A stretch of DNA of 64,000 nt from Parcubacteria group bacterium (GTDB lineage Bacteria > Patescibacteriota > Microgenomatia > UBA1400 > PJMF01): assembly GCA_943350175.1 (NCBI GenBank), contig CALQZX010000005.1:150-64149 (forward strand), read 5' to 3'. Both the position numbers and the translations under genes were made by a program. The notes under the pieces were generated by a model. The model made no database searches. It had not been told where the DNA came from and worked only from the letters and a program-made list of their open reading frames with translations. Positions 1 to 22,461 of this stretch are shown here, in pieces; within the stretch, counting starts at the first letter, position 1; each line of letters starts with the position of its first letter.

Positions 1-158
1 TAGTCGTTGTTTTAGTCATTGTCCTTGTGTTATTTGGTGGCAAGAAACTCCCAGAACTATCTAAGGGAATCGGTGAAGCCATTAAAAATATTCGTACCGG
101 ATTCTCTGATGATGAAAAAACCAAAGACAAAACTTCAAAAGATAAGTCTAAAAAGTAA
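1..158 (+). CDS. tatA: TatA/E family twin-arginine translocase subunit, 5'-truncated by window edge
   Basis: Frame 3 translates to VVVLVIVLVLFGGKKLPELSKGIGEAIKNIRTGFSDDEKTKDKTSKDKSKK, stop TAA at 156-158. This is the TatA TM helix plus amphipathic helix (FGxxKLPEL...G....FR). Confidence 0.75.
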   Translation, partial: VVVLVIVLVLFGGKKLPELSKGIGEAIKNIRTGFSDDEKTKDKTSKDKSKK

Positions 159-864
159 TCCTCAAGAGAAGCTCCTGATCAAAGAACATCTGAGTGAGTT
201 AGCTCACCGCTTTTACGCTTGGCTCCTGTTCTTTATTGTCGGTTGCGTCATCGGTTACCTCAACTATGCCAGACTCCTTGACTGGCTCATTACTCCACTA
301 CACAAACCTCTGTTTTATACCTCACCCATTGGTGGATTTGAGGCGGTGTTTGGGGTGTCTGCCCTGTTTGGGTTTGTCTTTTCCCTGCCAATTCTCCTAT
401 TTGAGATCATCAAGTTCATCGAGCCAGTCAGTCCCAAGTTCAAAGGCAAAAAGATTATTGCCTATCTCCATATTTCCTTACTACTAGCTATATCAGGCAT
501 CCTCACCTCATATTACTTGGTATTTCCCGCCTCCCTCGAATTCCTCGGCAAGTTTGGTAGTGATCAACTAGAGTCTCTGATTTCCACCAAGGATTACTTT
601 TCATTTGTGACAAGATACCTGCTGGGATTTGCCATCCTGTTCCAGCTCCCGCTTGTGATCTATCTCATCAGTTTGTTCACGCCAGTTTCAGCCAAGTCCC
701 TCCTTAAACAATTCAAGTATGTCTTTGCCTTAAGTTTCCTAATCGCTGCCATTTTGACCCCCACCCCTGATTTAGTTAATCAAACGATCATGGCTACCCC
801 CATCATCCTTCTGTATTTGCTAACCATATTGATATTACTAATCAAAAAGGGTATTGTTAAATAA
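109..864 (+). CDS. tatC: Sec-independent protein translocase TatC
   Basis: Six TM segments, with a TatC-like N-terminus (LIKEHLSELAHRFYAWLLFF) and TatC-like loops. The first in-frame ATG before the conserved EHL motif is at 109/112, overlapping the tatA end by ~50 nt. The ORF track's start at 19 is unlikely to be real. Confidence 0.8.
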   Translation: MMKKPKTKLQKISLKSNPQEKLLIKEHLSELAHRFYAWLLFFIVGCVIGYLNYARLLDWLITPLHKPLFYTSPIGGFEAVFGVSALFGFVFSLPILLFEIIKFIEPVSPKFKGKKIIAYLHISLLLAISGILTSYYLVFPASLEFLGKFGSDQLESLISTKDYFSFVTRYLLGFAILFQLPLVIYLISLFTPVSAKSLLKQFKYVFALSFLIAAILTPTPDLVNQTIMATPIILLYLLTILILLIKKGIVK

Positions 865-867
865 GAT

Positions 868-1077
868 ATGAAAAGTGTAGTCAGGAAATTGTCCTCAGTT
901 AAACTCACAAGGTCTGAGTTTTTAACGTATGTTGGGGTAGTATTCCTTGGTATCCTTGGTATTCCTTCTCTCCTTAAACTTGTCTCAGATGTCAGTCCTA
1001 AATCAAACACTAGCACTAAAAGAGTCGTTAAAAAGCCTGCTCCACATACCTTTGGTTCTGGAGCATACGGAGTTTAA
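868..1077 (+). CDS. small hypothetical membrane protein (one TM)
   Basis: 69-aa ORF with a single hydrophobic helix, tightly packed between tatC and the downstream fibre-like genes. Confidence 0.35.
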   Translation: MKSVVRKLSSVKLTRSEFLTYVGVVFLGILGIPSLLKLVSDVSPKSNTSTKRVVKKPAPHTFGSGAYGV

Positions 1078-1087
1078 ATAAAAATAT

Positions 1088-1528
1088 ATGACAGCAATAC
1101 CAACAGTTGGAGGAAATAATGGATCTTGGGGAACAGTTCTTAATGACTACCTCCAAACAGAACATACCTCAACTGGTACTCATGGCCTTGCAACTGGACT
1201 TGTGACTGATGTAGTCAACACCGTCGCAGATGCAGGAGCTACTAAAACAATCCCAGCTCCAACCGTAGCAGGAATTAACTACTTAACCCTCACCGCCACT
1301 TGTACTCTCACTTTCCCCACAGCCGTAGCAGGTCAATCTTTTACATTAGTACTTAAACAAGGTGGATCAGGTAGTTACACCATCACTTGGCCAGCTAGTA
1401 TCGTGAAATGGGACGGTGGAGTCGCTCCTACCCTCACAACCACAGTTGGTGCAATAGACATCCTTGGTTTCATGTGTGTTGATGGCACTAACTGGTTTGG
1501 CTTTGTCTCAGGCCAAAATATGAGTTAG
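1088..1528 (+). CDS. phage tail-fibre-like protein (N-terminal 'GGxNxSWGtvLNdyL' motif)
   Basis: MTAIPTVGGNNGSWGTVLNDYLQ... resembles the conserved N-terminus of Caudovirales tail-fibre/collar proteins. The rest is Thr/Gly/Ala-rich and beta-rich. Confidence 0.45.
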   Translation: MTAIPTVGGNNGSWGTVLNDYLQTEHTSTGTHGLATGLVTDVVNTVADAGATKTIPAPTVAGINYLTLTATCTLTFPTAVAGQSFTLVLKQGGSGSYTITWPASIVKWDGGVAPTLTTTVGAIDILGFMCVDGTNWFGFVSGQNMS

Positions 1529-1544
1529 GCAATTAACACAACAT

Positions 1545-2558
1545 ATGAAATTATCTAGAAGAAGACTATTTAGAGTAATGATTAGTGGCCGAGCCACTTA
1601 CTCTATCTCTGGCACAGTTTATGACGCTGATGGTACAACGCCCGTAGAAGGTGCAACCGTCGCTCTTGGACTACTTACCACCACAAGCGTAGCTGATGGG
1701 ACATTTACAATAACTGATATTCCCGCTGGCACTTCTGGACCGATGACATGCACAAAAACGGGCTACTCGTGGACGGAGATTAGTATTGCGGCGATGGGTG
1801 GTAGTCTGACTGCGCAGAATTACGTCAATGTGTGGTATGCAATAGGTGGAACTTATAACAACATTAAGGCGTTTTATCACCCGCTAGGCGCGGCATCACT
1901 CGATGCTAGCTACGTAAACTTAATTGACCAAGGTGTAAACAATGCCGTGCCCGGAGTAACACCAACATTTGATACGTCCTATGGATGGTCGTTCAACGGG
2001 TCTAGTGAATATCTGAAATGCCCTCTTAGTATGGGAGATAATTGGACAGTGATTGAAAGATATAGTAATGGAACTGTTGGTGGAAACAAAACTTGGTGGG
2101 GCAGTGCAGATGTGGGATCGTACAAATTGGTATCTGCTAATGACGCTGGGATTGGAGACAAAATAACTGTTCAGCACGGTGGAACTGCATTAAATGTGTT
2201 TTTCCAACAACCCCTGGGAGGAATTATTGGAATTGCTGGTAGGCAACTATATGTAGATGGAGTAGCAAGAGGTTCACAAATGGGTGCAGGTTCTGGGGGC
2301 GCGTATGCCTCAGCAATGGGAATTGGCTGTTTCCTTTCTGGAACCGCACTGACACCCAGTGGTTACTCAGCTAAGCGTACTCAGATATTTATAGCTTATA
2401 ACGTAACTTTGACATTGGCACAAATACAAGTCATAAATTCGGCAATGGCGGCTTCAACAACACCATTAATCGCAGGATTGCCAGAGGATGTTTTTTTGTT
2501 TGCCAGTAGCGAACAACTTATGCTAGACTCGGTAGGCGAAAGATTGCAACAAGGATAA
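1545..2558 (+). CDS. surface protein with carboxypeptidase-regulatory-like beta-sandwich and LamG/concanavalin-like domain
   Basis: N-terminus ISGTVYDADGTTPVEGATVALG...DGTFTITDIPAGT is typical of a CarboxypepD_reg-like domain. The middle segment (SYGWSFNGSSEYLKCP...NWTVIERYSNG) looks like a LamG-like jelly-roll. Gly/Thr/Ser-rich overall. Confidence 0.45.
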   Translation: MKLSRRRLFRVMISGRATYSISGTVYDADGTTPVEGATVALGLLTTTSVADGTFTITDIPAGTSGPMTCTKTGYSWTEISIAAMGGSLTAQNYVNVWYAIGGTYNNIKAFYHPLGAASLDASYVNLIDQGVNNAVPGVTPTFDTSYGWSFNGSSEYLKCPLSMGDNWTVIERYSNGTVGGNKTWWGSADVGSYKLVSANDAGIGDKITVQHGGTALNVFFQQPLGGIIGIAGRQLYVDGVARGSQMGAGSGGAYASAMGIGCFLSGTALTPSGYSAKRTQIFIAYNVTLTLAQIQVINSAMAASTTPLIAGLPEDVFLFASSEQLMLDSVGERLQQG

Positions 2559-2560
2559 CT

Positions 2561-3757
2561 ATGGCACAAATAGGAACATATACAACAAAAGAAACCCCTG
2601 TCAGAGATGATAAATTGATAGGAACAAGCTCGAACGGAGGATCAACAAATAACTTTTTATTATCTGCCATTCGTCAGGTGTACTACCCCGAAGATTATGG
2701 CGCTGTAGGTGATGGAGCTGCAGATGATACTACTGCGTTGATAAACTGTGCGTCAGCGGCTGGTGGCAAGATAATGGCACTACAGCCAGGGAAAACCTAT
2801 ATTTATTCAGGCCGAATCATACTGACCGCTAATACGATTTTAAATGGCAATCATGCAATCCTACAGCGCAGGGCCGGGACGACACTTGTGTCTACCACTC
2901 TAACAGCTATTGCCGAAAACGCTCCCAGTGGGGTAACGGTACGGGTTGCTGACCCGTCTAAATTTGCAGTGAATATGTGGGTATCTCTAGATAATAACGT
3001 TCCCTCAATGGCAGAGCCAACTTTCACTTTGGCTGGTCATAAAATCACCAATATATCAGGTGATGTGCTCACTTTGGATAGTGCGTTCACTACTGCTATG
3101 GGGATTGGCTCTTATGTGCGCATGTCTACAACGTGTATCAACGCGGGGGCAGGTTGCAAGATTCGTAACCTGAGAATAGACGGTAACAAGGCCAATCAGC
3201 TTATAGGTGCTGCTGCGTGGGGTTACTGGGGGCAGCATTATGAACTATTAGTTACATCTTCGATAGTCGAAGGATGCGAGATTTACAATGGTCAATCTGA
3301 AGGCATTGGAATGGCTGGGATACACAATGTCATAAAAAATAACAATATTCACGATTGCAATGGGAATGGAATCCATTTGTCTGCATCGGTAAGCGATGAA
3401 ATTACAGGAAATCGACTTATAAATAATAATTTGCTAGACAACAACGCATCTAACCTGCTAACCGAGAACACGGGACACAACGAAGGACATATCTGCTTTT
3501 CTGACACAACAGAAAGTACAGTTGTGTCAGGTAATCATATTATGGCAACAGGCGCGTATGGCATCGGTGCATTCGACGCTACAAATAAATATATAATTGT
3601 TAACGCTAATATTTTTGACAGTTGCGTATCTGCCCCCATGCAAATTGGTGCTGGTGCAGATGGTGTTATCCTGACCTCTAATTTCTTTATTGATTGTGGA
3701 GTACAAGGTACAGTAGGAGGCTCAGTAATTGAGCATAATCACGTTATAAACAGATAG
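2561..3757 (+). CDS. pectate-lyase-superfamily / right-handed parallel beta-helix protein (tailspike-like)
   Basis: YYPEDYGAVGDGAADDTTALINCASAAGG is the hallmark motif of Pectate_lyase_3/tailspike proteins. Repeated NNxIHDCNGNGIHL / ITGNRLINNNL coils of a parallel beta-helix follow. Confidence 0.6.
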   Translation: MAQIGTYTTKETPVRDDKLIGTSSNGGSTNNFLLSAIRQVYYPEDYGAVGDGAADDTTALINCASAAGGKIMALQPGKTYIYSGRIILTANTILNGNHAILQRRAGTTLVSTTLTAIAENAPSGVTVRVADPSKFAVNMWVSLDNNVPSMAEPTFTLAGHKITNISGDVLTLDSAFTTAMGIGSYVRMSTTCINAGAGCKIRNLRIDGNKANQLIGAAAWGYWGQHYELLVTSSIVEGCEIYNGQSEGIGMAGIHNVIKNNNIHDCNGNGIHLSASVSDEITGNRLINNNLLDNNASNLLTENTGHNEGHICFSDTTESTVVSGNHIMATGAYGIGAFDATNKYIIVNANIFDSCVSAPMQIGAGADGVILTSNFFIDCGVQGTVGGSVIEHNHVINR

Positions 3758-3795
3758 AAAACCACCTCGGACATGCAATAGGTTTCTCTTGAAGA

Positions 3796-3984
3796 CTATT
3801 TTTGAGCTTTAGTTTTTGGAGTTTTCTCTTTTTTGTTTTCGTTATCGCTAAAGCCTGATCGAATATTCTTGATAGCTTCCCCAATTCCTCTAGATAGCTC
3901 AGGTAGCTTCTTGCCACCAAATAACACAAGGACAATAACCAAAACAACAATAAATTCTTGTACCCCTATTCCAAACATATACAT
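3796..3984 (-). CDS. tatA: TatA/E family twin-arginine translocase subunit (second copy, opposite strand)
   Basis: MYMFGIGVQEFIVVLVIVLVLFGGKKLPELSRGIGEAIKNIRSGFSDNENKKEK... Near-identical at protein level, and ~85% identical at nucleotide level over the TM/hinge region, to the partial tatA at 1-158. The two copies are in inverted orientation. Confidence 0.8.
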   Translation of the reverse strand: MYMFGIGVQEFIVVLVIVLVLFGGKKLPELSRGIGEAIKNIRSGFSDNENKKEKTPKTKAQK

Positions 3985-4194
3985 AGATATTATTCGTAAT
4001 CTACAAGGAATGCAATAGTTTGAATCCCACCAGCCCCACCTGGGCGTGAAATGATCTAGACATCTCGTGATTTATAGCTAACTACCACCACTACTCTTTC
4101 ACACACATCACTGGTGAAGCAAAATTTTTATATTTTATCTGTTAGTTGCTTTTTTCCTCTGGAGCGATATAATTCTCTCAAGTTTACAAGAGCT

Positions 4195-4217
4195 GCCCCT
4201 CCGATAGGGGCTTTTTT
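4195..4217 (+). terminator. rho-independent terminator-like hairpin (gcccct-ccgat-aggggc + T6)
   Basis: A 6-bp GC-rich stem with a 5-nt loop, followed by TTTTTT on the plus strand only. It lies in the 285-nt spacer before the pilin-like gene. Confidence 0.4.
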
Positions 4218-4269: not shown

Positions 4270-4605
4270 ATGAATAAAAAAATAATTGTTACATCTTCTC
4301 TCGCCATCATGGCACTAATCTTTGCGTCACCAGTCTTGGCTGCTTCAGCTGACGTAACCAAGATCGAGACATTCATCAAAAGTATTATCCAAATCTTAGT
4401 GACACTTGCCGGACTCATTTCCGCTGGATTCTTTGTCTGGGGTGGTGTTAGTTATATAACCAGTTCGGGCAACCCAGTTGCGTTGGATCAGGCAAAAAAC
4501 ACGATTAAATATTCAGCCATTGGATTGATCGTTGTCTTGGGAGCATTCATCTTGACTAATATCATCTCTGATTTAGCAACTGGAGCATTTGGAGCTACTC
4601 AATAG
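4270..4605 (+). CDS. VirB2/TrbC-like pilin-type protein (signal peptide + two TM helices)
   Basis: Signal peptide MNKKIIVTSSLAIMALIFASPVLA, then two hydrophobic helices separated by a short loop (…GGVSYITSSGNPVALDQAKNTIKYSAIGLIVVLGAF…). This matches the T4SS pilin architecture. Confidence 0.5.
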   Translation: MNKKIIVTSSLAIMALIFASPVLAASADVTKIETFIKSIIQILVTLAGLISAGFFVWGGVSYITSSGNPVALDQAKNTIKYSAIGLIVVLGAFILTNIISDLATGAFGATQ

Positions 4606-4631
4606 TTCCAATCTTTGGATTATGAACAACT

Positions 4632-5924
4632 ATGAAATTATTGAGTCTGGCACTAATCACCATACTTACGACACTCTTCTTCCCTTCTGTGGCCTATGCA
4701 GCAAGTAGCGCACCATCGGAAGTAACCGCTTTTACGAGTGATGCCCTCACTCTCATTACGATAATATCGGCCGCCTCAGCGGTCTTTTTTTTAATTCGCG
4801 GTGGCTATGTCTACATTACCTCAACTGGCAAGCCAGACGCGCTTGAAGAAGCAAAGAAAACTATTCGCAACTCTATCATTGGTTTAGTACTTGTCCTCGC
4901 CTCCAGTTCAATAGTCTCTGTTTTATCTGGCGCTTTGGTGGGAGGTGGCACTGCCACAAATACAGCCACTCTTCCATTAACTCAAATTGAGAGTGTTGCT
5001 CCAAGTGATGGGTTGACCCAAGTACTAATTGATGCGGTCAACGGATTTATTCAAAATATAGTTGAGAGTTCTACTAAGCCAATAGTCGATGGAATTATGA
5101 CCTTTCTTGGCTCAACTCCATCGCTTCTTGAAAATGCCTCAATCGTCAAATTCTGGCTCATTATGCTCGGTATCACCGATACTCTCTTTGTCCTTGTCGT
5201 CGCACTCCTTGGCCTCCAATTCATGAGTGCCTCCACCTTTGGCTTTGAAGAGATAGAGTTTAAACATTTACTTCCTAGAATTGGCCTGGCGTTCTTAGGG
5301 GCGAATGTCTCACTCTTTTTGGCCGATTATGCAATTAAAGCCAGCAACGCTCTGGTATCTGGGGTAATCTCTGCCACAGGAGGCCTCAATCATGCATGGA
5401 TCACGAACGCTATTACCATATCTAGTCTAACTAATGGCACTGCGCCATTTATTATTCTCATTTTCCTTTTGATATTTCTCATTGTCGCCATCGTACTACT
5501 GCTTATGTACATCAGTCGTTTGATCGTCATAGTACTTGGAGCTGTCCTTTCTCCTTTTATATTCTTACTCTCTGCTATTCCTAAAACTGCTGACTTTGCT
5601 GAGATGGCAGTTAAAGGCTATCTTGTCTCTGTATTTACGATCTTTGTTCATGTCGTAACTATTCAACTGGCTGGAACATTTTTAACCTTGCCAGAGCAAA
5701 CCAATAACTCTCTGATTTCTGTCGCTGTGGCTATCGGGTTATTACTCACTCTCTTGAAAATTCCTAGCTTCATGATGCAACTTATTCTATTTTCCCGAAG
5801 TGTTGGAGCAGTTCGACATATGGGGAGTCAAATCACCAATGTGTTAAGTACTGACTCGAGCTCAAATGTAGCCTACAAGGGCGCGAGAGCAGTCAAGATG
5901 CCCAGAAGGAGTGCAAACCTATGA
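4632..5924 (+). CDS. VirB6/TrbL-like polytopic membrane protein with N-terminal pilin-like domain
   Basis: The N-terminal ~110 aa repeat the architecture and motifs of the preceding pilin-like protein (signal peptide, RGGYVYITSTGKPDALEEAKKTIRNSIIGLVLVL). At least five further TM helices follow, typical of VirB6/TrbL. Confidence 0.5.
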   Translation: MKLLSLALITILTTLFFPSVAYAASSAPSEVTAFTSDALTLITIISAASAVFFLIRGGYVYITSTGKPDALEEAKKTIRNSIIGLVLVLASSSIVSVLSGALVGGGTATNTATLPLTQIESVAPSDGLTQVLIDAVNGFIQNIVESSTKPIVDGIMTFLGSTPSLLENASIVKFWLIMLGITDTLFVLVVALLGLQFMSASTFGFEEIEFKHLLPRIGLAFLGANVSLFLADYAIKASNALVSGVISATGGLNHAWITNAITISSLTNGTAPFIILIFLLIFLIVAIVLLLMYISRLIVIVLGAVLSPFIFLLSAIPKTADFAEMAVKGYLVSVFTIFVHVVTIQLAGTFLTLPEQTNNSLISVAVAIGLLLTLLKIPSFMMQLILFSRSVGAVRHMGSQITNVLSTDSSSNVAYKGARAVKMPRRSANL

Positions 5925-6397
5925 GAACTACCATCATCCCAGCACAAATCACTACAGTTGAGGACAAGATTGCCGGCAGTCTTAACATGACTCAAATCCT
6001 CATTATGATGTTTCCAGTTTTATGGACAGCACTCGTATACATTCTTCTTTTCCCCAGCATGAAACTAACTTCTTTCAAACTGGTATTAATTATTTTTGCC
6101 ACAGCAACCTCGGGTATTTTGGCCCTACGAATCAAAGACAAGATAGTAGCCGAGTGGTTAGGAGTTCTTCTTAAATATCGCCTCAGGCCAAAGTACTACC
6201 TATTTAACAAAAATGATTTAACTAATCGATCACTCGATATACCAGAACTACCAGTTGAGAATGTTGTCGTCAAAAAGAAGGCAAAGAAATCTATCCGAAA
6301 CGAAAACTTTGATCTGGATATCCTTGATCAGGTTAAGCTTGAGCATTTAATAAACTCAGGCAAAGTCGCCCTACACTATCAACTGAGTAAAAAATAA
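5921..6397 (+). CDS. small two-TM protein, VirB3/PrgI/TcpE-like (T4SS)
   Basis: 158 aa with two TM helices, sitting immediately upstream of VirB4. Overlaps the upstream gene by 4 nt. Confidence 0.4.
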   Translation: MRTTIIPAQITTVEDKIAGSLNMTQILIMMFPVLWTALVYILLFPSMKLTSFKLVLIIFATATSGILALRIKDKIVAEWLGVLLKYRLRPKYYLFNKNDLTNRSLDIPELPVENVVVKKKAKKSIRNENFDLDILDQVKLEHLINSGKVALHYQLSKK

Positions 6398-6398
6398 T

Positions 6399-7019
6399 AT
6401 GAAGAACTTACTACATAAATCAGGTAGCACCAGTAGTCGCCAACAAATTCAGATTAAGGAAGTGGTGGATAACATCCTCGTGCTCCCTAATAACGAATAC
6501 CGCCAGATCCTTGAAACTTCCTCGGTCAACTTCGAGCTCAAAAGTGAAGAAGAGCAGGATGTGATCATCGACAGTTTTCAAAACTTCTTAAATGCTCTGC
6601 CCTGTCAGATCCAAATTCTCGTCAGGGTACGCGAAATGGATATTGATAAATATCTCGAAGACATCGCTAAAACAAAAGATAAGGAAAAAGTTCCTGCCTA
6701 CAAAAAACAAATTGAGGGTTACTGTGCTTTTGTGAAGAAGTTGGTCTCGGGAAATAAGATCCTATCAAGACGCTTCTATATTATCGTTCCCTACAAACAT
6801 ACTGAACGTCATCAAGACATGAAGCTCATTAAAGAACATCTAAATCTTGAGAAAGACATCATCGTCAAAGGACTCGAGCGCATGCAGATGAAAGCGAGAT
6901 CGCTCTCAGGCATAGAAATCCTCAATCTCTTTTACGGTTTTTACAACGGTGAGAGCATGAAAACTCAACCCCTTACCAAAGAATCCGTGGAGGCGTTACT
7001 ACGAAATAACTATGTTTAA
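6399..7019 (+). CDS. VirB4/TrbE-type ATPase, N-terminal domain (split gene, part 1)
   Basis: QIKEVVDNILVLPNNEYRQILETSSVNFELKSEEEQDVIIDSFQNFLNALPCQIQILV matches the N-terminal domain of Gram-positive VirB4 homologues. It ends in an ATGTTTAA overlap with the next ORF. Confidence 0.55.
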   Translation: MKNLLHKSGSTSSRQQIQIKEVVDNILVLPNNEYRQILETSSVNFELKSEEEQDVIIDSFQNFLNALPCQIQILVRVREMDIDKYLEDIAKTKDKEKVPAYKKQIEGYCAFVKKLVSGNKILSRRFYIIVPYKHTERHQDMKLIKEHLNLEKDIIVKGLERMQMKARSLSGIEILNLFYGFYNGESMKTQPLTKESVEALLRNNYV

Positions 7020-8811
7020 TCTAACCAAAAAACTATCAAATCTAAAACCAATTAAAAATTGGAAACGCCAACAGCTCAAGAAGAAGTTGACCAACCAGTC
7101 GATTAACATTGCCTACGGGCAGCAAGATCAGCTCGACATGATCTCTTATGCTGGTCTTAAAGAAGAATCCAGCTATTTGCAGATCAACGATCGCTACGTC
7201 AGGACATTGTTTGTTTCAGGCTATCCCTATGTAGCCTCAACTGGCTGGCTCTCTATGCTCATTAATTTCAATCACAATATTGATATCAGCTATCACATTG
7301 AACAAGTTGATCCACTCATTGCTCTGCCCAAACTCAATAGAAAGATCACGGAGCTTGAATCCACCAAACGCACCATGCTTAAAGAAGGTAAGGTCATAGG
7401 GAGCGAAATTACTGATCCCCTCGAATCGGCTATGGAGCTTAAAGACAAAATTCAGCGGGGCATGGAGAAGCTTTTCCAAATCTCTATCTATATGACGATT
7501 AGTGCCGAGAGTTTATCAGAACTCAATAAAGTCACCAAACTCCTCGAAACGGTTATGCAGACAAGACTTTTCTACATCAAGCCCGCTACCTTCCAACAGA
7601 TCGAGGGGTTGCAGTCTATTCTCCCTAGAGCCGAGAATAAACTAGCTCAAAAACGTAATCTTGATAGCTCAAGTGCTGCCCTGACCTTCCCCTTTGTCTC
7701 CTCTGAACTCGTCCAAGAATCAGGTATCTTGTACGGTATCAACAAATCAAATAATTCTCTGGTCATTATTGATCGCTTTAGTTTAAATAATGCCAACTCT
7801 ATTATTTTTGCCCAGTCGGGATCTGGTAAAAGCTATACCGCCAAGGTGGAGATTTTAAGACACCTGATGCAGGGTACAAAGGTCATCATTATTGACCCTG
7901 AGCGCGAGTACAAACAACTGGCTAAGAGTGTGGACGGCACATATATCAAACTCTCTAGCTCATCCAAAGAAAAGATTAATCCTTTTCAGTTCTCAGAGCA
8001 CTCAGTTACCCAAGAAAACAATTTATCCGAACATATTCAGGATTTAACCGAGCTCATCTCCCTGATGGTTGGGTCACTCACCTCAGAAGAGAGGGCATCA
8101 GTTGATCGCGCACTACTTCTCACCTACAAAGAAGCCAAGCTTACTCCGCGTAAAAATGCCAAGAGATCAAAAGCAATAGAGTATCCGCTCCTGAAAGATT
8201 TCTATAAAAATTTAAAATTAATGAAACAGAAAGATTTATGCGACCGACTTGAGAGATTTGTAAAAGGATCGTTATCTACCGTCTTTGATTCCCAAACTAA
8301 TATCAAACTGGATAATCGTCTAATTGTCTTTGATATTAAAGATTTAAACGAATCAATCAGATCAATCATGATGATGGTGGTTGCTAACTTCGTTAATAAC
8401 GAAGTTAAACAAAATCCCCAGAAACGAATGCTCGTGATTGATGAGGGTTGGATGCTCCTGCAAGAACCAGAGAGTGCCAGGTTTATCTCAGGTCTAGTTC
8501 GCCGAGCAAGAAAATATTACTTAGGCGTCACGATCATCACTCAGCAAGCCAATGACTTCCTCAACCAAGACTATGGCAAAGCCATTGCTAGCCAATCATC
8601 CCTGAGAATTCTAATGCGCCAAGATACGACAACTATTAAAAAAGTGGCTGACGAGTTCCATTTATCTGCCTATGAACAACACTATCTGCTAACCTGTGAT
8701 CGAGGTGAGGCTTTAATTATTGCCGATCAAAACCATGTTGCAGTGAAAATTGTGGCCTCAGAGCAAGAACATCCACTTCTGACTACTGATCCCCGGGAAG
8801 TCTATATCTAG
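7012..8811 (+). CDS. VirB4/TrbE-type T4SS ATPase, C-terminal ATPase domain (split gene, part 2)
   Basis: Walker A IIFAQSGSGKSYTAKVEIL, Walker B RMLVIDEGWMLL, and the overall VirB4/CagE/TrbE C-terminal layout. Confidence 0.8.
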   Translation: MFNLTKKLSNLKPIKNWKRQQLKKKLTNQSINIAYGQQDQLDMISYAGLKEESSYLQINDRYVRTLFVSGYPYVASTGWLSMLINFNHNIDISYHIEQVDPLIALPKLNRKITELESTKRTMLKEGKVIGSEITDPLESAMELKDKIQRGMEKLFQISIYMTISAESLSELNKVTKLLETVMQTRLFYIKPATFQQIEGLQSILPRAENKLAQKRNLDSSSAALTFPFVSSELVQESGILYGINKSNNSLVIIDRFSLNNANSIIFAQSGSGKSYTAKVEILRHLMQGTKVIIIDPEREYKQLAKSVDGTYIKLSSSSKEKINPFQFSEHSVTQENNLSEHIQDLTELISLMVGSLTSEERASVDRALLLTYKEAKLTPRKNAKRSKAIEYPLLKDFYKNLKLMKQKDLCDRLERFVKGSLSTVFDSQTNIKLDNRLIVFDIKDLNESIRSIMMMVVANFVNNEVKQNPQKRMLVIDEGWMLLQEPESARFISGLVRRARKYYLGVTIITQQANDFLNQDYGKAIASQSSLRILMRQDTTTIKKVADEFHLSAYEQHYLLTCDRGEALIIADQNHVAVKIVASEQEHPLLTTDPREVYI

Positions 8812-8813
8812 CT

Positions 8814-9416
8814 ATGAATCCAAAGCTAGTACTTACACTCTGGTCGTTTCGCAAAGAACTTAAATTCGTCCTCCTCGCATTCCTCACCATCCTCATGCTT
8901 CCTGTCATTGCGGTCATTCTGCTGACTCAGGTGGGTATAAATATTATCTCCGACAAGTTGGTTGATCAAAATCCGACCAATCAAAGCATCCAGATCAAAG
9001 ACCCAACAACTGGAGAGGTAGTCAAAGAAATTAATCCGACAGTTGTCTGGCCCACCAAAGGGGTAATTACTCTGGAATTTGCACAATCGAGCATGTATCA
9101 GGTCTTCCATACTGGCATAGATATTGCCAGTAAGCTAGATGAACCAGTGAACCCCGCTATGGAAGGCACTGTTATTTATGCGGGAGAGATATTTTGGGGA
9201 TTTGGTAAGCATGTCATTATTGATCACGGAAATAATGTCGTGACTATCTATGCCCACCTAAACAAGATTTACGTCTTTAAAGGCCAAAAGGTGACCACCA
9301 GCGACGTAATTGGTGGCCAAGGTCAAACAGGTTGGGCTACTGGAGTTCACCTTCACTTTCAGGTGAATATATATGGGATACCAGTCAATCCGAGGGTGTT
9401 TTTGGATATTAGATAG
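8814..9416 (+). CDS. M23 family metallopeptidase with N-terminal TM anchor (putative T4SS-associated cell-wall hydrolase)
   Basis: HTGIDIA…GTVIYAG…HVIIDHGNNVVTIYAHL…GWATGVHLHFQV gives the M23 LytM-type HxxxD / HxH motifs. Confidence 0.8.
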   Translation: MNPKLVLTLWSFRKELKFVLLAFLTILMLPVIAVILLTQVGINIISDKLVDQNPTNQSIQIKDPTTGEVVKEINPTVVWPTKGVITLEFAQSSMYQVFHTGIDIASKLDEPVNPAMEGTVIYAGEIFWGFGKHVIIDHGNNVVTIYAHLNKIYVFKGQKVTTSDVIGGQGQTGWATGVHLHFQVNIYGIPVNPRVFLDIR

Positions 9417-9484
9417 ATTATAAGCTAAGTTATATAATTGGGATGTAAATGGTATTTTGTAAATAATGACTAAAAGAATAAACC

Positions 9485-11860
9485 ATGACCAAAAACAATA
9501 AAGGACTATTTAATAAAAAGGTTGAAAGTCTTTTGCGTAGATTACTTAGAAATGGCAACCGAAAATTTATTTCTATCAATAAGCTCATAGCGTTCAATTA
9601 TTACCTCATTGCGCTGAGAGCAAAAACATTTTTCAGATTTCGAGTTCTCCATTTTCTTAACGCCAAGAAAATGCTTATTGGTTCGTTGATTTATTTTTTG
9701 CTCCTGATAGGCTCTATACTTTTATTAGGGCAGTTTATTGATCCAGCATTTGCTAGGAGTGATGCCATCACCTTTTTTACAGCAGTAGCGGCCATGATCG
9801 GTGGTATCTTAGCAATTATCTTTTCACTTAGTATTCTCCTGATGGGAAATGCAGCAGAGCGTATTCCGGTAGGTTTTTATGAGACTGCTGCAAGAGATTG
9901 GTTGCACGATGTGATATTTTTTCTCATTAGCATTTGTTCTTTAGTGGTCTTCTCTTTTGCACTACTATTTAGCAAACTCAATCTAGGGCTTACGGTACTC
10001 TCTTTTCAGTCAGCTATATTTTTGATTGGCTTTGTTTTCTACCTAACCTTTGTCTTCTATCAAAGAGTTCGAGACAGGCTTGACCCAAATAATGTATTAA
10101 AAATTGCCTCTAAGCAAGCCTTCGCCAAGTTAGACTTCACTCATAAACGAGCTCAAGAAATCGCTGACGTTTTGATTAGACAGCCAAAGTTGGATAAAAA
10201 GGTCACTAAAGAGGAAGCATTGGCAACTTCTTTTCAATATTTGAAACCAGAGTTTGCTTACATCAATAGCAGACTCAACTATCTTTTTGACTATCATGGA
10301 AAATTGGTGGCCTCCAACGAGAGAAGCTCTGCTCTTGGTGTTCTGCAGGTAATAACCAATATTCTTCAAAAGTATTTTCAAACCAGAAAAGATTCCTCGT
10401 TCGTACTACCTGCCGGATTTATTTTAGCCACCACGAGCGATTCTTGTGCTTTCCTAACTCCTCCACTAGAAAGACTAGTGGCTGTTGGTGAAAATTACAT
10501 GAGAGAAAATGACAATGAAGGGATTACCCGAGTAATTTCTATCTTTGTGCAGTTATGTAAGTCAGCCAGTGAGATCAACTATCTGACCAAACATAAGGTA
10601 GAAAGCCCAATAATGGAGCAATGTAGAGGCTACCTAAACCAACTGCTTGAGAGTGCTATTAAATTTAACTATCAGGAGGCTCTATTCCAAGGCATATTAG
10701 CATATGAAGAAATAATTCCAATCGTAATAAAACAGAATCTCCACCATGAGTTTATATCGATTTATGACATGCTCGACAAGATTGCCATGAGTGCCCTAAC
10801 AAACAAATATAACGTAGTTTTAGGTCAGGTAATAAATACTTACACTTCGATTCTGTCTCAACTGATAGCGACAAAATACTTTAACTTGGAAATGGAACTA
10901 GGTTCTTTATGGGAACACTTGAGGAATATTATTTTTTACGCATATGTTTCTATGGTGACTGGCTCTCTTGATAACAGCTTTTCAGTTCAAACAAACTTAG
11001 CAAACCCATTCACAGCAATGTCCTCGATGATTTTCCAAACAGCAAGAGCAGCTACGAACGCTAAAACTGAAGAAGAAATCAACGACTGGAAGGAGGCATT
11101 CTTTACTACTACAGAGGAGTTAAGATCTACTCTCCGCTACCTTTCAGAAAAGATGAAGACAGCCAATCACATTTTGATCAGCACCTTTGGTGAGATTATT
11201 TCCGATGTAGGTTGTTTATTAGTCGACTTGACTAAAAACGGGAAATGGGCAGGTGATAAAGAAGAACTCACAAAACAAATTGGTTGGTATATCTTCCAGA
11301 CAGAATGGTTTACCCATGACCTTAAAAAGATCAAAGATAACAATTCGTTTGACTCTCTAATTGAAGCAGCATCAAAAATAGGTATAAGAGCCATGCAACA
11401 AGAGTTAGATCAAACTGCCAAGGATGCAATTAAAATTCTTTACAACTTTGCCATTAAGATGATGACTTTAGGTGAAGGTGATAGTTATGGTTTTACGGAA
11501 CCAAGAATAATGGAGAGAGCTTGCTACATTGGAGTGCTGGCTCTTAAATTGGGTAAAACAGAGATTATAGACGATTTGAAAGGTTATATAAAAACCTTTG
11601 AAGATGCATATCGAAAAAAATGGTATCCAGAAGGGCCACCAGAAAAAGGAAAGTTAATCTCGCCAAGTTATGATCAACTAATGATGGAAGTGCATGGTCT
11701 TGTAGAAAAGAAAAGAAGTCGTTACGGGCTTTTACCAATTATGGATCGAGCAGATGATGATCTACTACCACTCATCACAGAAGAAGATGTAAACAAATTT
11801 ATTATGGAAGTCTGGGGTGTAACGATTGAAACTAAGACTAGTAGCAGTATGTTTTTTTAA
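9485..11860 (+). CDS. large membrane-anchored protein of unknown function (5-6 N-terminal TM helices + ~600-aa helical domain)
   Basis: Hydrophobic N-terminal third, long soluble C-terminal part, no recognisable catalytic motif. Confidence 0.4.
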   Translation: MTKNNKGLFNKKVESLLRRLLRNGNRKFISINKLIAFNYYLIALRAKTFFRFRVLHFLNAKKMLIGSLIYFLLLIGSILLLGQFIDPAFARSDAITFFTAVAAMIGGILAIIFSLSILLMGNAAERIPVGFYETAARDWLHDVIFFLISICSLVVFSFALLFSKLNLGLTVLSFQSAIFLIGFVFYLTFVFYQRVRDRLDPNNVLKIASKQAFAKLDFTHKRAQEIADVLIRQPKLDKKVTKEEALATSFQYLKPEFAYINSRLNYLFDYHGKLVASNERSSALGVLQVITNILQKYFQTRKDSSFVLPAGFILATTSDSCAFLTPPLERLVAVGENYMRENDNEGITRVISIFVQLCKSASEINYLTKHKVESPIMEQCRGYLNQLLESAIKFNYQEALFQGILAYEEIIPIVIKQNLHHEFISIYDMLDKIAMSALTNKYNVVLGQVINTYTSILSQLIATKYFNLEMELGSLWEHLRNIIFYAYVSMVTGSLDNSFSVQTNLANPFTAMSSMIFQTARAATNAKTEEEINDWKEAFFTTTEELRSTLRYLSEKMKTANHILISTFGEIISDVGCLLVDLTKNGKWAGDKEELTKQIGWYIFQTEWFTHDLKKIKDNNSFDSLIEAASKIGIRAMQQELDQTAKDAIKILYNFAIKMMTLGEGDSYGFTEPRIMERACYIGVLALKLGKTEIIDDLKGYIKTFEDAYRKKWYPEGPPEKGKLISPSYDQLMMEVHGLVEKKRSRYGLLPIMDRADDDLLPLITEEDVNKFIMEVWGVTIETKTSSSMFF

Positions 11861-20995: not shown

Positions 20996-22461
20996 CACCC
21001 AGAGTTATTTTACGCGAGACTGCGGAAGTCAATTCAGAACGAAAGGCAGGACTATCGCCTTACGTTCTTGGAAAAATCGATCTCGTATTAAGAGAAGTTT
21101 TAATTGACTCTTTTTATCATAATACAGATCGTGGCAGCAGACTACTTTCTCCTGGTGGAGAGAGTATGGCTGCCATGTTGCAGCAATCCGGGCTATATAG
21201 TGAAAAAGGTTTAATTGATGGTGTTCCAACGTTAATGCTGATGCTTAGAGAAAAAATGGTTTCTAAAGAAAATGTAGATTTAGAAAAGATTGCAAGGCAA
21301 GCGGTTGATCTAGTGATTGATGAGGCTGGTAATAGCGATTGGAAATGTTCAACAAAAGATTATCAAGTTGTGGACAATCTTTTGAGCAGTGGCAATTTAC
21401 TAAAAATGATTTTAGAATCGTTCTCTATTTTGGGTGCCAGTGGCGTAAATTGCCTGCACGGTCAAAACGGAGAATTTGAATTAATTTGGAATATTGAGTC
21501 TGGTTTGCCAAAATGGTTATCTTTACCAAAGCTCAAAGTGCTTAGAAATATGCGAAATGGTTTTATTGGTGATACTGAGGTAGAGCTATTTCCTCTAGGA
21601 GCAAAATTTTTTAAATTGAAATGCTGTAGACAAAAATCAGGCAACGAAGCAATGCCGTCAGTGATCACTTTTCTCAGTGGTTTCTTTGATGATGACAATA
21701 ATCAAGTCTTGCGTGGTGCTACTAAAATACGTATTAGTCCTTTGGGTGTAGCAGCTGACGCGCGCACAGGCCTGGTTTCTAGTTTACAGGCACTTCAATT
21801 GGATATTTCTTACAATCAGGGACAAGATAAGAGAGGTTATCGTTTTCTTGATCAGAAACCTGGTGATTTTTGCCACGTTGAAAAAAGTATACCTGCCGAT
21901 AAGATTCAAGATCCAGAAATATTAAACAGTCCAAGACACTCCTTAATTGCTCTTGGCAGAATGGTTCTTAATCAAGCCAGAATTAGCTCTTTTGATTCTG
22001 AAATGAAAACTGATGAGTCGACTTTGGTAAGTTTAAATTCTTTGGTGGAAGCGGTAGAAAAATTTCAATCACAAAAATTAATACCAGAGTTGGCTTTGAA
22101 AGAAACTATTAGTCGTTTAATTGGGGCAATCATTATTAATCCGTTTGTCATAATTAGACTGCTTCGATCAACAAGAATGGAAAGACTTTTCCCAAGGTTG
22201 GAAAATTTATTTCAATTAATTGGTCAAGTAAATCTAAGGGGTTCTGATGACGTCCATAATTATTTGGCTAGAAATGCCTATCAATTGCCATTTGCTTATA
22301 AACAAAGTGGAGAAATTAGGCTAAGTAAAAAAAGTTACAAAAAATTCTTCCCATTCATGTTGGAGAGATTGAATGATGAAAGTAGTCTCAGCATTGATCA
22401 AAAACCTCCTTTAAATTTGTCACCAGTGGCTAAATTGGCTTGGTATTTTGAGCAAGTTTAG
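20983..22461 (+). CDS. hypothetical protein, translationally coupled to the upstream regulator (13-nt overlap)
   Basis: 492-aa ORF with no recognisable motifs. Confidence 0.4.
   Translation: MEAIAPRVILRETAEVNSERKAGLSPYVLGKIDLVLREVLIDSFYHNTDRGSRLLSPGGESMAAMLQQSGLYSEKGLIDGVPTLMLMLREKMVSKENVDLEKIARQAVDLVIDEAGNSDWKCSTKDYQVVDNLLSSGNLLKMILESFSILGASGVNCLHGQNGEFELIWNIESGLPKWLSLPKLKVLRNMRNGFIGDTEVELFPLGAKFFKLKCCRQKSGNEAMPSVITFLSGFFDDDNNQVLRGATKIRISPLGVAADARTGLVSSLQALQLDISYNQGQDKRGYRFLDQKPGDFCHVEKSIPADKIQDPEILNSPRHSLIALGRMVLNQARISSFDSEMKTDESTLVSLNSLVEAVEKFQSQKLIPELALKETISRLIGAIIINPFVIIRLLRSTRMERLFPRLENLFQLIGQVNLRGSDDVHNYLARNAYQLPFAYKQSGEIRLSKKSYKKFFPFMLERLNDESSLSIDQKPPLNLSPVAKLAWYFEQV

Follow-up and report, generated by a model that had tools for sequence, protein, structure and literature searches.

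A Tat-linked operon with phage-type fibre genes and a variable cargo slot between two inverted tatA copies in a Patescibacteria genome

How do genes resembling the receptor-binding proteins (RBPs) of phages come to lie between two inverted copies of tatA, a gene of the pathway for twin-arginine translocation (Tat), in a bacterial genome? The question is raised by the first 4217 nt of a 64,000-nt stretch of DNA from a Parcubacteria group bacterium, the whole of which is hereafter called the window. An original prediction had seen there a cassette of three RBP-like genes inserted between tatC and a second tatA, possibly open to inversion through the two tatA copies, and coding for either the surface adhesins of an epibiont or the remnant of a prophage tail module. 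The analysis reported here leads to another answer. The genes belong to an operon, conserved in Patescibacteria (Microgenomates-type), composed of tatA-tatC, a 69-aa mini-protein gene, a 146-aa mini tail fibre gene and strain-variable cargo. The 'cassette' is the variable 3' part of this Tat-linked operon, and is neither an insertion nor a prophage remnant. With moderate confidence, window 1-4217 as a whole is read as a single operon, together with a relic, on the chromosome of a bacterium of the Patescibacteria (Microgenomates-type).

The gene content was obtained from a listing of open reading frames (ORFs) combined with Pfam, NCBIfam and PHROG profile scans. On the + strand, tatA-left (3-158, within window 1..158), whose first codons are cut by the window start, is followed by tatC (250 aa, 112-864), the start of which overlaps the tatA-left 3' end by 47 nt. 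Then come the mini-protein gene (868-1077), the mini tail fibre gene p146 (1088-1528) and two cargo genes, p337 (337 aa, 1545-2558) and p398 (398 aa, 2561-3757), the gaps between consecutive operon genes being of 3, 10, 16 and 2 nt. The second copy, tatA-right, lies on the - strand at 3796-3978 (60 aa from the conserved MFGIG start, with an ORF extending to 3984). The original prediction had correctly recognised the tatA on the + strand, tatC, the three RBP-like genes and the complete tatA on the - strand, all at or near their present positions, as well as the paralogy and inverted orientation of the two tatA copies.

Concerning the Tat genes, the window starts ca. 149 nt from the end of its source contig (ENA ERZ27280308 k141_2037864, 94,847 nt; locus label L016, such L-numbers being our labels for related metagenomic loci or contigs). 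On this contig, the full tatA-left encodes 60 aa (L016 125-307) and tatC is called at L016 261-1013. The truncated tatA-left matches Pfam TatA_B_E (PF02416) with an E-value of 9.5e-12 and 44.4 bits, and TIGR01411 with 50.3, a score lowered by the window truncation. The corresponding values for tatA-right are 2.4e-14, 52.8 bits (cut-off 21) and 57.3 vs. 53.9, and place it in the TatA/TatE family; both products read MFGIGVQE..LVLFGGKKLPEL. As for tatC, TIGR00945 gave 148.7 bits vs. a cut-off of 132.7, and Pfam TatC (PF00902) an E-value of 2.7e-45 and 155.2 bits with profile positions 1-208 of 208 covered, which makes its product a member of the TatC family.

The arrangement was then compared with that of related genomes. 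A TatC-anchored scan, limited to one genome per species, returned three relatives, metagenome-assembled genomes labelled Patescibacteria or Microgenomates, one of them in a bin labelled archaeal. In all three loci, tatA-tatC is followed by a 64-65-aa gene and then by a protein with the N-terminal motif PTVGGxxGxWGTILNxxL, which at the p146 position is a 142-aa orthologue in L003 and a 568-aa protein with a central beta-helix in L001. The p146 protein has 130 homologues, mostly 145-149 aa long and 55-97% identical. Locus contexts were collected by exact look-up and a metagenome scan, and the ORFs of 125 loci were scored by phmmer, the counts including some redundant samples of the same population. 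About 20 distinct loci among the 125 possess tatA and/or tatC, the small gene and p146 in the same order and on one strand. This order recurs without a second tatA, and the idea of a cassette inserted between tatC and tatA had to be abandoned. The small gene stands directly upstream of p146 in 21 of the 29 distinct full-length p146 loci.

TatC E-values across the operon-bearing loci range from 1e-41 to 1e-142, indicating that the genomes involved are quite divergent. Relative to L014, the closest relative with a contig (synonymous divergence, dS, ca. 0.84), the ratio of nonsynonymous to synonymous substitution rates (dN/dS) is 0.07 for tatC, 0.15 for the small gene and 0.08 for p146. These values point to working genes and not to a decaying prophage, and purifying selection on p146 is as strong as on tatC.

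The 69-aa gene, which the original prediction had not mentioned, is the key to the locus. Its product has a basic N-region containing T-R-S-E-F-L, a single 18-aa hydrophobic helix, a K-rich tail and a C-terminal FGSGAYGV. It matches NCBIfam NF038009 ('twin-arginine translocation system-associated protein') with an E-value of 6.9e-8 and 32.6 bits, under the 100-bit cut-off, and the small proteins of eight relatives, with 32-50 bits and E-values from 1e-7 to 2e-13, likewise fall outside curated membership. Every small protein tested matched NF038009 only, apart from one negligible second match; by their scores they are distant relatives outside the curated family, with the same size and architecture. 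The family name carries no attached function, and 'TatB_1' also occurs in the NCBIfam naming.

A word-indexed homologue search with the 69-aa protein recovered only 10 close relatives, and an exhaustive profile search was needed to reveal a family of 87 cluster representatives, ranging from 45 to 137 aa, almost all between 45 and 94 aa. Their common motif is x-R-[K 60% / R 23% / A 7%]-x-F-L, followed by a hydrophobic helix of about 18 residues and a K-rich tail, with FGxGxYG at or near the C-terminus in 77% of the family. The close relatives of the window protein display R-S, R-K or R-Q at the motif. Across the family, the first arginine, F-L and the hydrophobic h-region are kept while the second arginine varies. 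The consensus of Tat signals being S/T-R-R-x-F-L-K, the mini-protein is organised like a Tat signal peptide, except that the second arginine is relaxed. A regular-expression scan of the 64-kb window for other RR or RK signal proteins found none, a sample too small for a conclusion. An apparently 'true' Tat signal downstream of a p146-like gene in L036 was disregarded, its frame being unconfirmed on a GC-rich fragment that runs off the contig.

The next gene of the operon, p146, bears the NGSWGTVLNDYL motif (N-terminal phage-fibre motif, PTVGGxxGxWGxxLNxxL) and matches PHROG tail-fibre families (best phrog_9017, E 7.6e-15). Its AlphaFold2 (AF2) model (pLDDT 86.9) consists of a low-confidence N-terminal helix and a very confident beta-sandwich at residues 43-146. 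Against the predicted viral structures of BFVD, 291 fold matches were obtained at E<=1e-3 (best E 3e-13, TM 0.69), many of them named tail fibre or fibre C-terminal domain. Matches to the PDB are weak (E 0.03-0.2), the top five all being phage spike or baseplate proteins. A tblastn comparison with cultured phages gave 48-57% identity between residues 83-145 and the C-termini of proteins annotated as tail fibres or minor tail proteins. Contigs in IMG/VR mostly carry either the N-terminal motif (residues 1-31) or the C-terminal domain (63-146), and for matches over the full length the identity does not exceed about 30%. Both sequence and fold therefore link p146 to the C-terminal domain of annotated fibres.

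Taken together, p146 is a 'mini fibre', made of an anchor motif and a tip domain, without shaft or central enzyme domain, and its tip is a common phage domain. In L001, the 568-aa protein at the same position combines the anchor, Beta_helix and Phage_depo_C (PF25692). The label PF26209 Phage_phiTE_241_C, attached to p146 homologues, is a precomputed, weak assignment which was not reproduced locally. A role as gp10-like adaptor was downgraded, in view of the weak PDB matches and of the BFVD matches to a common fibre C-terminal tip domain.

The first cargo protein, p337, has a disordered N-terminus, a CarboxypepD_reg domain (Pfam E 4e-7, just under the cut-off) and a jelly roll (AF2 pLDDT 83.6). 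In a Foldseek search of the PDB, the jelly roll matched trans-sialidase lectin domains, the Hc fragment of botulinum neurotoxin (BoNT) and AbnA domain 4 (E ca. 1e-6, probability 1.00), and also the Pan3 tailspike of a cyanophage (E ca. 1e-6). Laminin_G_3 (PF13385) is matched by 6 of 40 p337 family members. By its AF2 model and the Foldseek matches, p337 adopts a LamG/concanavalin-A-like lectin fold. Homologues with 40-48% identity are present in viral or phage-like contigs: in L126 (4989-7882), the gene stands two genes downstream of a terminase-like gene, and in L127 (6535-8984), it is followed by a beta-helix gene, mirroring the p337-p398 pair of the window. The relationship of the enclosed proteins to phage RBPs, put forward in the original prediction, was in this way borne out by the PHROG, BFVD and tblastn matches of p146 and by the viral homologues of p337. 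The structure predictions agree with it, the beta-sandwich of p146 matching phage fibres and the jelly roll of p337 matching lectins as well as the Pan3 tailspike.

The second cargo protein, p398, is a pectate-lyase-type right-handed beta-helix (PF13229 Beta_helix, 41.2 bits, cut-off 25.9) with a YGAVGDG..DDT N-cap motif at residues 45-57; its matches to PF12708 Pect-lyase (23.0, below the cut-off of 27) and to NosD are weak. It resembles PHROG tailspike families over residues 20-96 only, and phi92 gp150 in the PDB over residues 31-91 (E 0.009), and no match was found in INPHARED (cultured phages) or IMG/VR. With the likeness confined to that segment and no counterpart in either collection, p398 was not retained as a phage tailspike. 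Between its residues 44-383 and residues 44-366 of a 625-aa L059 protein the identity is 30%, and the first 43 residues of the latter are a p146-type motif in place of the p398 N-terminus. This amounts to a clean module swap just before EDYGAVGDG.

By sequence inspection, none of p146, p337 and p398 has a signal peptide. In the relatives, the gene following p146 is unrelated from one locus to another, coding for LamG, GDSL lipase or CBM_4_9+BNR proteins, or for proteins without Pfam match, of 340-760 aa. An M-K-L-x-R-x-R-L tag nevertheless opens 16 of 26 cargo genes. In p337 it reads MKLSRRRLF, and the cargo of L018 shares MKLSRRRLFR before diverging. The public gene call starts p337 at 1578 (326 aa) and loses this tag; position 1545 was preferred because the same tag is found in the cargo genes of relatives, including L018. 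The window is collinear with L014 (84%) over 1-1559, i.e. through the first cargo codons, after which L014 carries an unrelated 340-aa gene. Homology resumes at 4153-4217 (+ strand), a 65-nt element which is 86% identical to the sequence lying right after the variable gene of L014. This element ends in a terminator-like hairpin, GCCCCTCCGATAGGGGC (4195-4211), followed by a T-run, as detected by a terminator scan and by homology to L014 and L032.

In L032 and L037, the same element is situated between the 3' end of a surface-protein gene with an fn3 domain and an IS200/IS605-type tnpA. The possibility that it is an IS200/IS605 end was set aside, the window having a single copy and no tnpA, and the element was retained solely for its likeness to a terminator. 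It probably represents the terminator that the operon had ancestrally, and marks the 3' edge of the variable slot. The cargo slot, from p146 to this element, is swapped between close relatives just after the conserved N-terminal tag. The cargo and fibre domains are common to phages, and the capture of phage domains into the slot is likely.

As a side observation over window 1400-3600, the GC skew of p337 and p398 is positive (+0.09 to +0.14), and that of five flanking same-strand genes (tatC, p146, pilin2, PrgI and VirB4) is negative (-0.08 to -0.22). The positive skew fits a foreign origin of the cargo, from the phage pool, or a Gly/Thr-rich composition.

Could the three genes simply be the decaying leftovers of a phage integrated beside the tat genes? 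The PHROG tail-fibre and tailspike matches, the fold and sequence matches of p146 to phage fibres, the p337 homologues of viral contigs (one near a terminase-like gene, one before a beta-helix gene) and the opposite GC skew of the cargo genes and their neighbours all speak for it. However, no capsid, terminase, integrase or baseplate gene, and no att site, was found in the first 22 kb of the window or in the loci of the relatives. Moreover, p146 keeps its operon position over divergent genomes with a low dN/dS, every ORF is intact and tightly coupled to the next, and the cargo begins with the lineage-specific MKLSRRRL tag, not with a phage N-terminus. A decaying prophage is therefore considered very unlikely. 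The original proposal of a tail-module remnant loses its basis on the same grounds, the flanks being devoid of phage genes, the neighbours being housekeeping genes and the dN/dS of p146 (0.08) being about that of tatC (0.07).

Those neighbours are DnaG, thioredoxin reductase, rpsF/ssb and PRPP synthetase in the relatives; in the window, a cluster resembling a type IV secretion system (T4SS) comes downstream, followed by PLD, HAD, GreA and LysRS genes. The T4SS-like cluster (4270-11860, + strand) comprises two T4SS_pilin genes, PrgI, TraC-like, a VirB4-like 599-aa ATPase and an M23 peptidase, together with a 791-aa protein without any Pfam match. It is collinear with L060 5033-9444 (65-75% nucleotide identity), where it also comes after a small gene-p146-cargo module. 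The adjacency of the tat module and the T4SS is thus conserved, and this synteny indicates that the cluster is not a fresh island. A tRNA-3'-end-like string, GTTTGAATCCCACCAGCCCCACC (4018-4040, + strand), with T-loop/acceptor-like features, had been envisaged as the att site of a T4SS island. It has no repeat within the window and no Rfam tRNA match at E<=5, and the island idea was dropped in view of the synteny of the T4SS with L060 and of the housekeeping genes that come after it. Another side observation concerns L004, a 951-kb contig with two divergent modules about 3.6 kb apart (515-3118 and 6786-9383), one made of tatA-tatC, the small gene and a 491-aa fused fibre protein, the other of the small gene, a 146-aa protein gene and cargo without tat genes.

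If the conserved operon accounts for the enclosed genes, what is the second tatA? The two copies form an inverted repeat with arms at 6-170 and 3784-3948 (165 nt, 78% complementary). When the upstream sequence of the source contig is included, the homology begins about 45 nt upstream of the ATG and extends about 14 nt beyond the stop, so that a unit of ca. 245 nt is repeated, an extent far beyond chance. The 85% identity over ca. 60 nt given in the original prediction corresponds in the alignment to one 58-nt stretch with ca. 90% identity. In the left copy, tatC begins within the unit and takes up its last ca. 60 nt as well. Where the left copy has the tatC start codons ATGATG, the right copy reads ATAACG, which means that it holds a dead tatC stub. 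This 5' stub (3784-3842, - strand), recognised by its homology to the left copy and to the relatives, overlaps the end of tatA-right, and the homology goes on for ca. 12-14 nt after the tatA stop, where the left copy has tatC coding sequence. On the other side, a conserved upstream region (3979-4021, - strand), a putative promoter/ribosome-binding site, aligns with the sequence upstream of tatA-left and of the L032 and L014 tatA. In the relatives, this 43-nt region reaches the start of a divergent fn3 surface-protein gene.

Within the 125 loci scored, the second tatA was found in the contig of the window alone and in none of the sampled relatives. Relative to tatA-left, tatA-right has 79% nucleotide identity, a dS of ca. 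1.0 and a dN/dS of 0.06-0.12. Relative to the L032 tatA, the identity is 87% and the dS 0.38, with homology over 238 nt including 43 nt upstream; the tatC genes of the window and L032 are saturated at synonymous sites. This closeness to L032, together with the dS of ca. 1 to the left copy, shows that tatA-right is not a recent duplicate. It is a mosaic, being L032-type at 20 of 22 informative sites over nt 76-183 and left-type at four consecutive sites over nt 48-63. The left-type patch corresponds to the 29 nt over which the arms are identical without interruption. Fisher's test gives p = 0.007 for the mosaic, its breakpoint having been placed post hoc.

The left copy has its own history. It is 98% identical to the L014 tatA, and the adjoining tatC has a dS of 0.84 vs. 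L014. The identity to L014 is 93-100% over the unit, from about -60 to about +180 in window coordinates (ending ca. 25 nt past the tatA stop; L016 65-330, window about -85 to 180, when delimited on the source contig), and mostly ca. 70-90% in its flanks. The synonymous difference between the window and L014 is 0.07 for tatA vs. 0.50 for tatC, a gap much larger than that of the other unsaturated pair, L001-L002 (0.17 for tatA vs. 0.26 for tatC). Judging from these comparisons, tatA-left is itself a recombination patch of ca. 250 nt between lineages. The tatA unit is accordingly exchanged between lineages, and there are hints that the two arms exchanged sequence at least once.

An inverted repeat of this kind recalls a switch, in which recombination between the tatA copies would flip tatC and the fibre genes and so alter phase or expression. 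The repeat that brackets the segment is genuine, with arms of at least 165 nt, and the four left-type sites in an otherwise L032-type right copy suggest past gene conversion between the arms. Yet the arms, with 78% identity, a dS of ca. 1.0 and a longest identical run of 29 nt, have not been homogenised. No invertase, integrase or recombinase occurs within 22 kb (genes were annotated up to window position 22461), and the second arm is present in no relative. A crossover inside tatA would recreate two intact tatA genes and place the same operon under the other tatA promoter, so that little would change. Besides, a single orientation is seen in the two records found, which probably derive from one assembly. 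A switch at the tatA repeat is unlikely, to the point of being highly improbable, although inversion may occur rarely, the arms having perhaps interacted once; and the inversion or recombination of the enclosed segment through the tatA copies, as originally envisaged, is not upheld, given the 78% arms, their dS, the 29-nt run and the missing recombinase.

The inverted tatA and its junctions might also be a chimeric join made during metagenome assembly. In favour of this, the left arm is only ca. 125-330 nt away from the end of the contig, a single assembly shows the right-hand arrangement (the second record of the locus is most likely a GenBank copy of the same assembly), and tatA-right is closest to the tatA of another lineage. 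Against this, the arms share at most 29 identical nt, far under the assembler k (141, as deduced from the contig name), and cannot cause a mis-join. The right copy is no normal L032-type locus either, with the fn3 gene deleted, tatC truncated and tatA itself mosaic, whereas the left part is independently confirmed by L014. We regard an assembly artefact as scarcely credible.

Most simply, the extra tatA can be read as what is left of a second or imported tat locus which arrived with a rearrangement of the slot, the content of the slot in the window being p337, p398 and the inverted tatA unit. Intact and under purifying selection, tatA-right probably still acts as an extra TatA paralogue. Transcripts of the operon that read through at its 3' end would probably run antisense to it, ahead of the terminator at 4195.

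What, then, might the operon do? Proteins of the tail-fibre and beta-helix kinds acquire their fold, and usually also form trimers, while still in the cytoplasm. Export by Tat is proposed on account of the extracellular-type domains, the lack of signal peptides, the tatAC operon and the adjoining Tat-signal-like mini-protein. Tat would bring the fibre, lectin and beta-helix proteins, already folded and devoid of signals, to the cell surface. Export would be of the hitchhiker type: the mini-protein would provide its partners with the signal and the membrane anchor, and the S-R-R-x-L tag of the cargo may help in docking or in recognition by TatC. What results would be a surface set of glycan binders and degraders, variable between strains, acting on the envelope of the host or prey of an epibiont. 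Of the two roles that the original prediction had allowed, the prophage tail remnant falls away, and surface adhesins of an epibiont remain the most plausible role.

A more far-reaching version of this proposal holds that, in these Patescibacteria with their small genomes, Tat is largely dedicated to exporting pre-folded, phage-derived fibre, lectin and depolymerase proteins by means of the mini-protein and the cargo tag as a targeting device in two parts, new cargo being captured from phages after the tag. In such a scheme, the mini-protein of ca. 65 aa would provide the R-K/R-R motif, a membrane-inserting h-region and an external FGxGxYG docking tail, and the cargo would provide the short S-R-R-x-L tag, phage cargo having been recombined in just after it. 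This version is offered tentatively, as a rather unlikely one.

Several points weigh against our interpretation of the locus and of its export. No small or tat gene was detectable in 8 of the 29 full-length p146 loci, and L026 and L027 are exceptions with another context around p146. The right junction (p398 / tatC stub / tatA-right) is documented by one metagenomic contig. The association of the small protein, p146 and the cargo is deduced solely from operon coupling. The T-R-S-E-F-L of the window protein and the predominant R-K of the family are atypical for transported Tat substrates, and suit a subunit or regulator bound to TatC just as well. A hydrophobic h-region is missing from the cargo tag, and the adjacent syntenic T4SS offers an alternative export route.

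The main rival reading, possible though not probable, is that the mini-protein is a TatC-bound subunit or regulator, that the fibres exit otherwise (by T4SS, lysis or vesicles) or act inside the cell, and that the linkage to tatAC reflects co-regulation only. The R-K / R-S motif is poor for transport, the T4SS cluster adjoins the module both in the window and in L060, and the NCBIfam name 'TatB_1' may suggest a Tat subunit. In addition, the second module of L004, as well as L006 and L008, have the small gene, p146 and cargo without an intact tatAC immediately adjacent. However, the small gene is coupled to p146 even where tatAC is absent or degraded, with a 4-nt overlap of the two genes in L012, which indicates that it travels with the fibre gene and not with the translocase. 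Furthermore, a role beyond the membrane is suggested by FGxGxYG, conserved at the extracytoplasmic C-terminus, and the cargo domains (CBM, LamG, GDSL, beta-helix and BNR) are typically extracellular.

The export proposal finds its nearest parallel in Tat hitchhikers, for which HybO/HybC and DmsA/DmsB of E. coli are examples. A ternary hitchhiker concept of Tat co-export is presented for PaoABC in PMC4273604. The resemblance lies in signal-less folded proteins encoded beside a partner with a Tat-type N-region and h-region, and in the capacity of Tat to move pre-folded or oligomeric proteins. Here, however, the partner has only ca. 65 aa and no catalytic or cofactor domain, its motif is mostly R-K (R-S in the window), the cargo consists of fibre, lectin and beta-helix proteins instead of redox enzymes, and the genes lie inside the tatAC operon, export being proposed from the genes.

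As for modular phage RBPs and depolymerases, such as the phi92 and CBA120 tailspikes, p146 likewise joins an N-terminal fibre motif to a C-terminal tip domain, L001 has the full anchor, beta-helix and Phage_depo_C at the same operon position, and domains are swapped exactly at module borders (p398 vs. the L059 protein). The present genes differ in belonging to a cellular tatAC operon without nearby virion genes, in the missing shaft of p146 and in the R-x-R tag that the cargo carries in place of a phage anchor. Rhs, CDI (contact-dependent inhibition) and other polymorphic toxins combine a conserved N-terminus with swapped C-terminal domains, and the loci described here also show a short conserved tag followed by unrelated domains, with near-identical loci diverging at a border just after the tag. 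Here the cargo binds or degrades glycans instead of being a toxin, and immunity genes and orphan cassettes were not seen.

The paralogy of TatA is known from E. coli (TatA/TatE) and B. subtilis (TatAd/TatAy/TatAc), and tatA-right is comparable as a second intact TatA-family gene, under purifying selection and away from its tatC. It differs in forming a unit of ca. 245 nt, to which an upstream region of its own and a dead tatC stub belong, and in being a mosaic, closest to the allele of another lineage and absent from the sampled relatives. Invertible tail-fibre segments and shufflons (Mu G/Gin, P1 C/Cin and the R64 shufflon) have short, near-identical sites and an adjacent site-specific recombinase, inversion swapping C-terminal exons. 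The window shares with them fibre-like genes between inverted repeats, but its repeats are diverged whole genes (78%), with no recombinase and no alternative exons.

Nothing sets TatA, TatC, the beta-helix or the LamG fold apart from the rest of their families. From the genomic evidence, the locus may be regarded as a variant of Tat hitchhiker export combined with modular RBP or polymorphic cargo loci. In the literature search, neither the coupling of tatAC with a mini-protein, a mini fibre and a swappable, tagged cargo slot, nor a Tat-linked fibre operon in bacteria of the candidate phyla radiation (CPR), was found described; NCBIfam goes no further than giving a related mini-protein its Tat-associated name.

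The earlier idea of an invertible or prophage cassette is thus largely explained away, the extra tatA being a strain-specific recombination relic. Should Tat indeed export the cargo, this would give Tat a concrete role in CPR bacteria, and the operon would be a first example of a cellular operon displaying phage-RBP-type proteins via a folded-protein pathway, with a compact targeting device made of a 65-aa carrier and a 9-aa cargo tag. In that case, the swapped slot would mark the way in which epibiotic bacteria change their specificity for hosts or prey. If, moreover, Tat is dedicated to this task, this would account for the retention of the system in organisms that possess hardly any redox enzymes, and for the manner in which an epibiont renews its proteins of attachment or attack.

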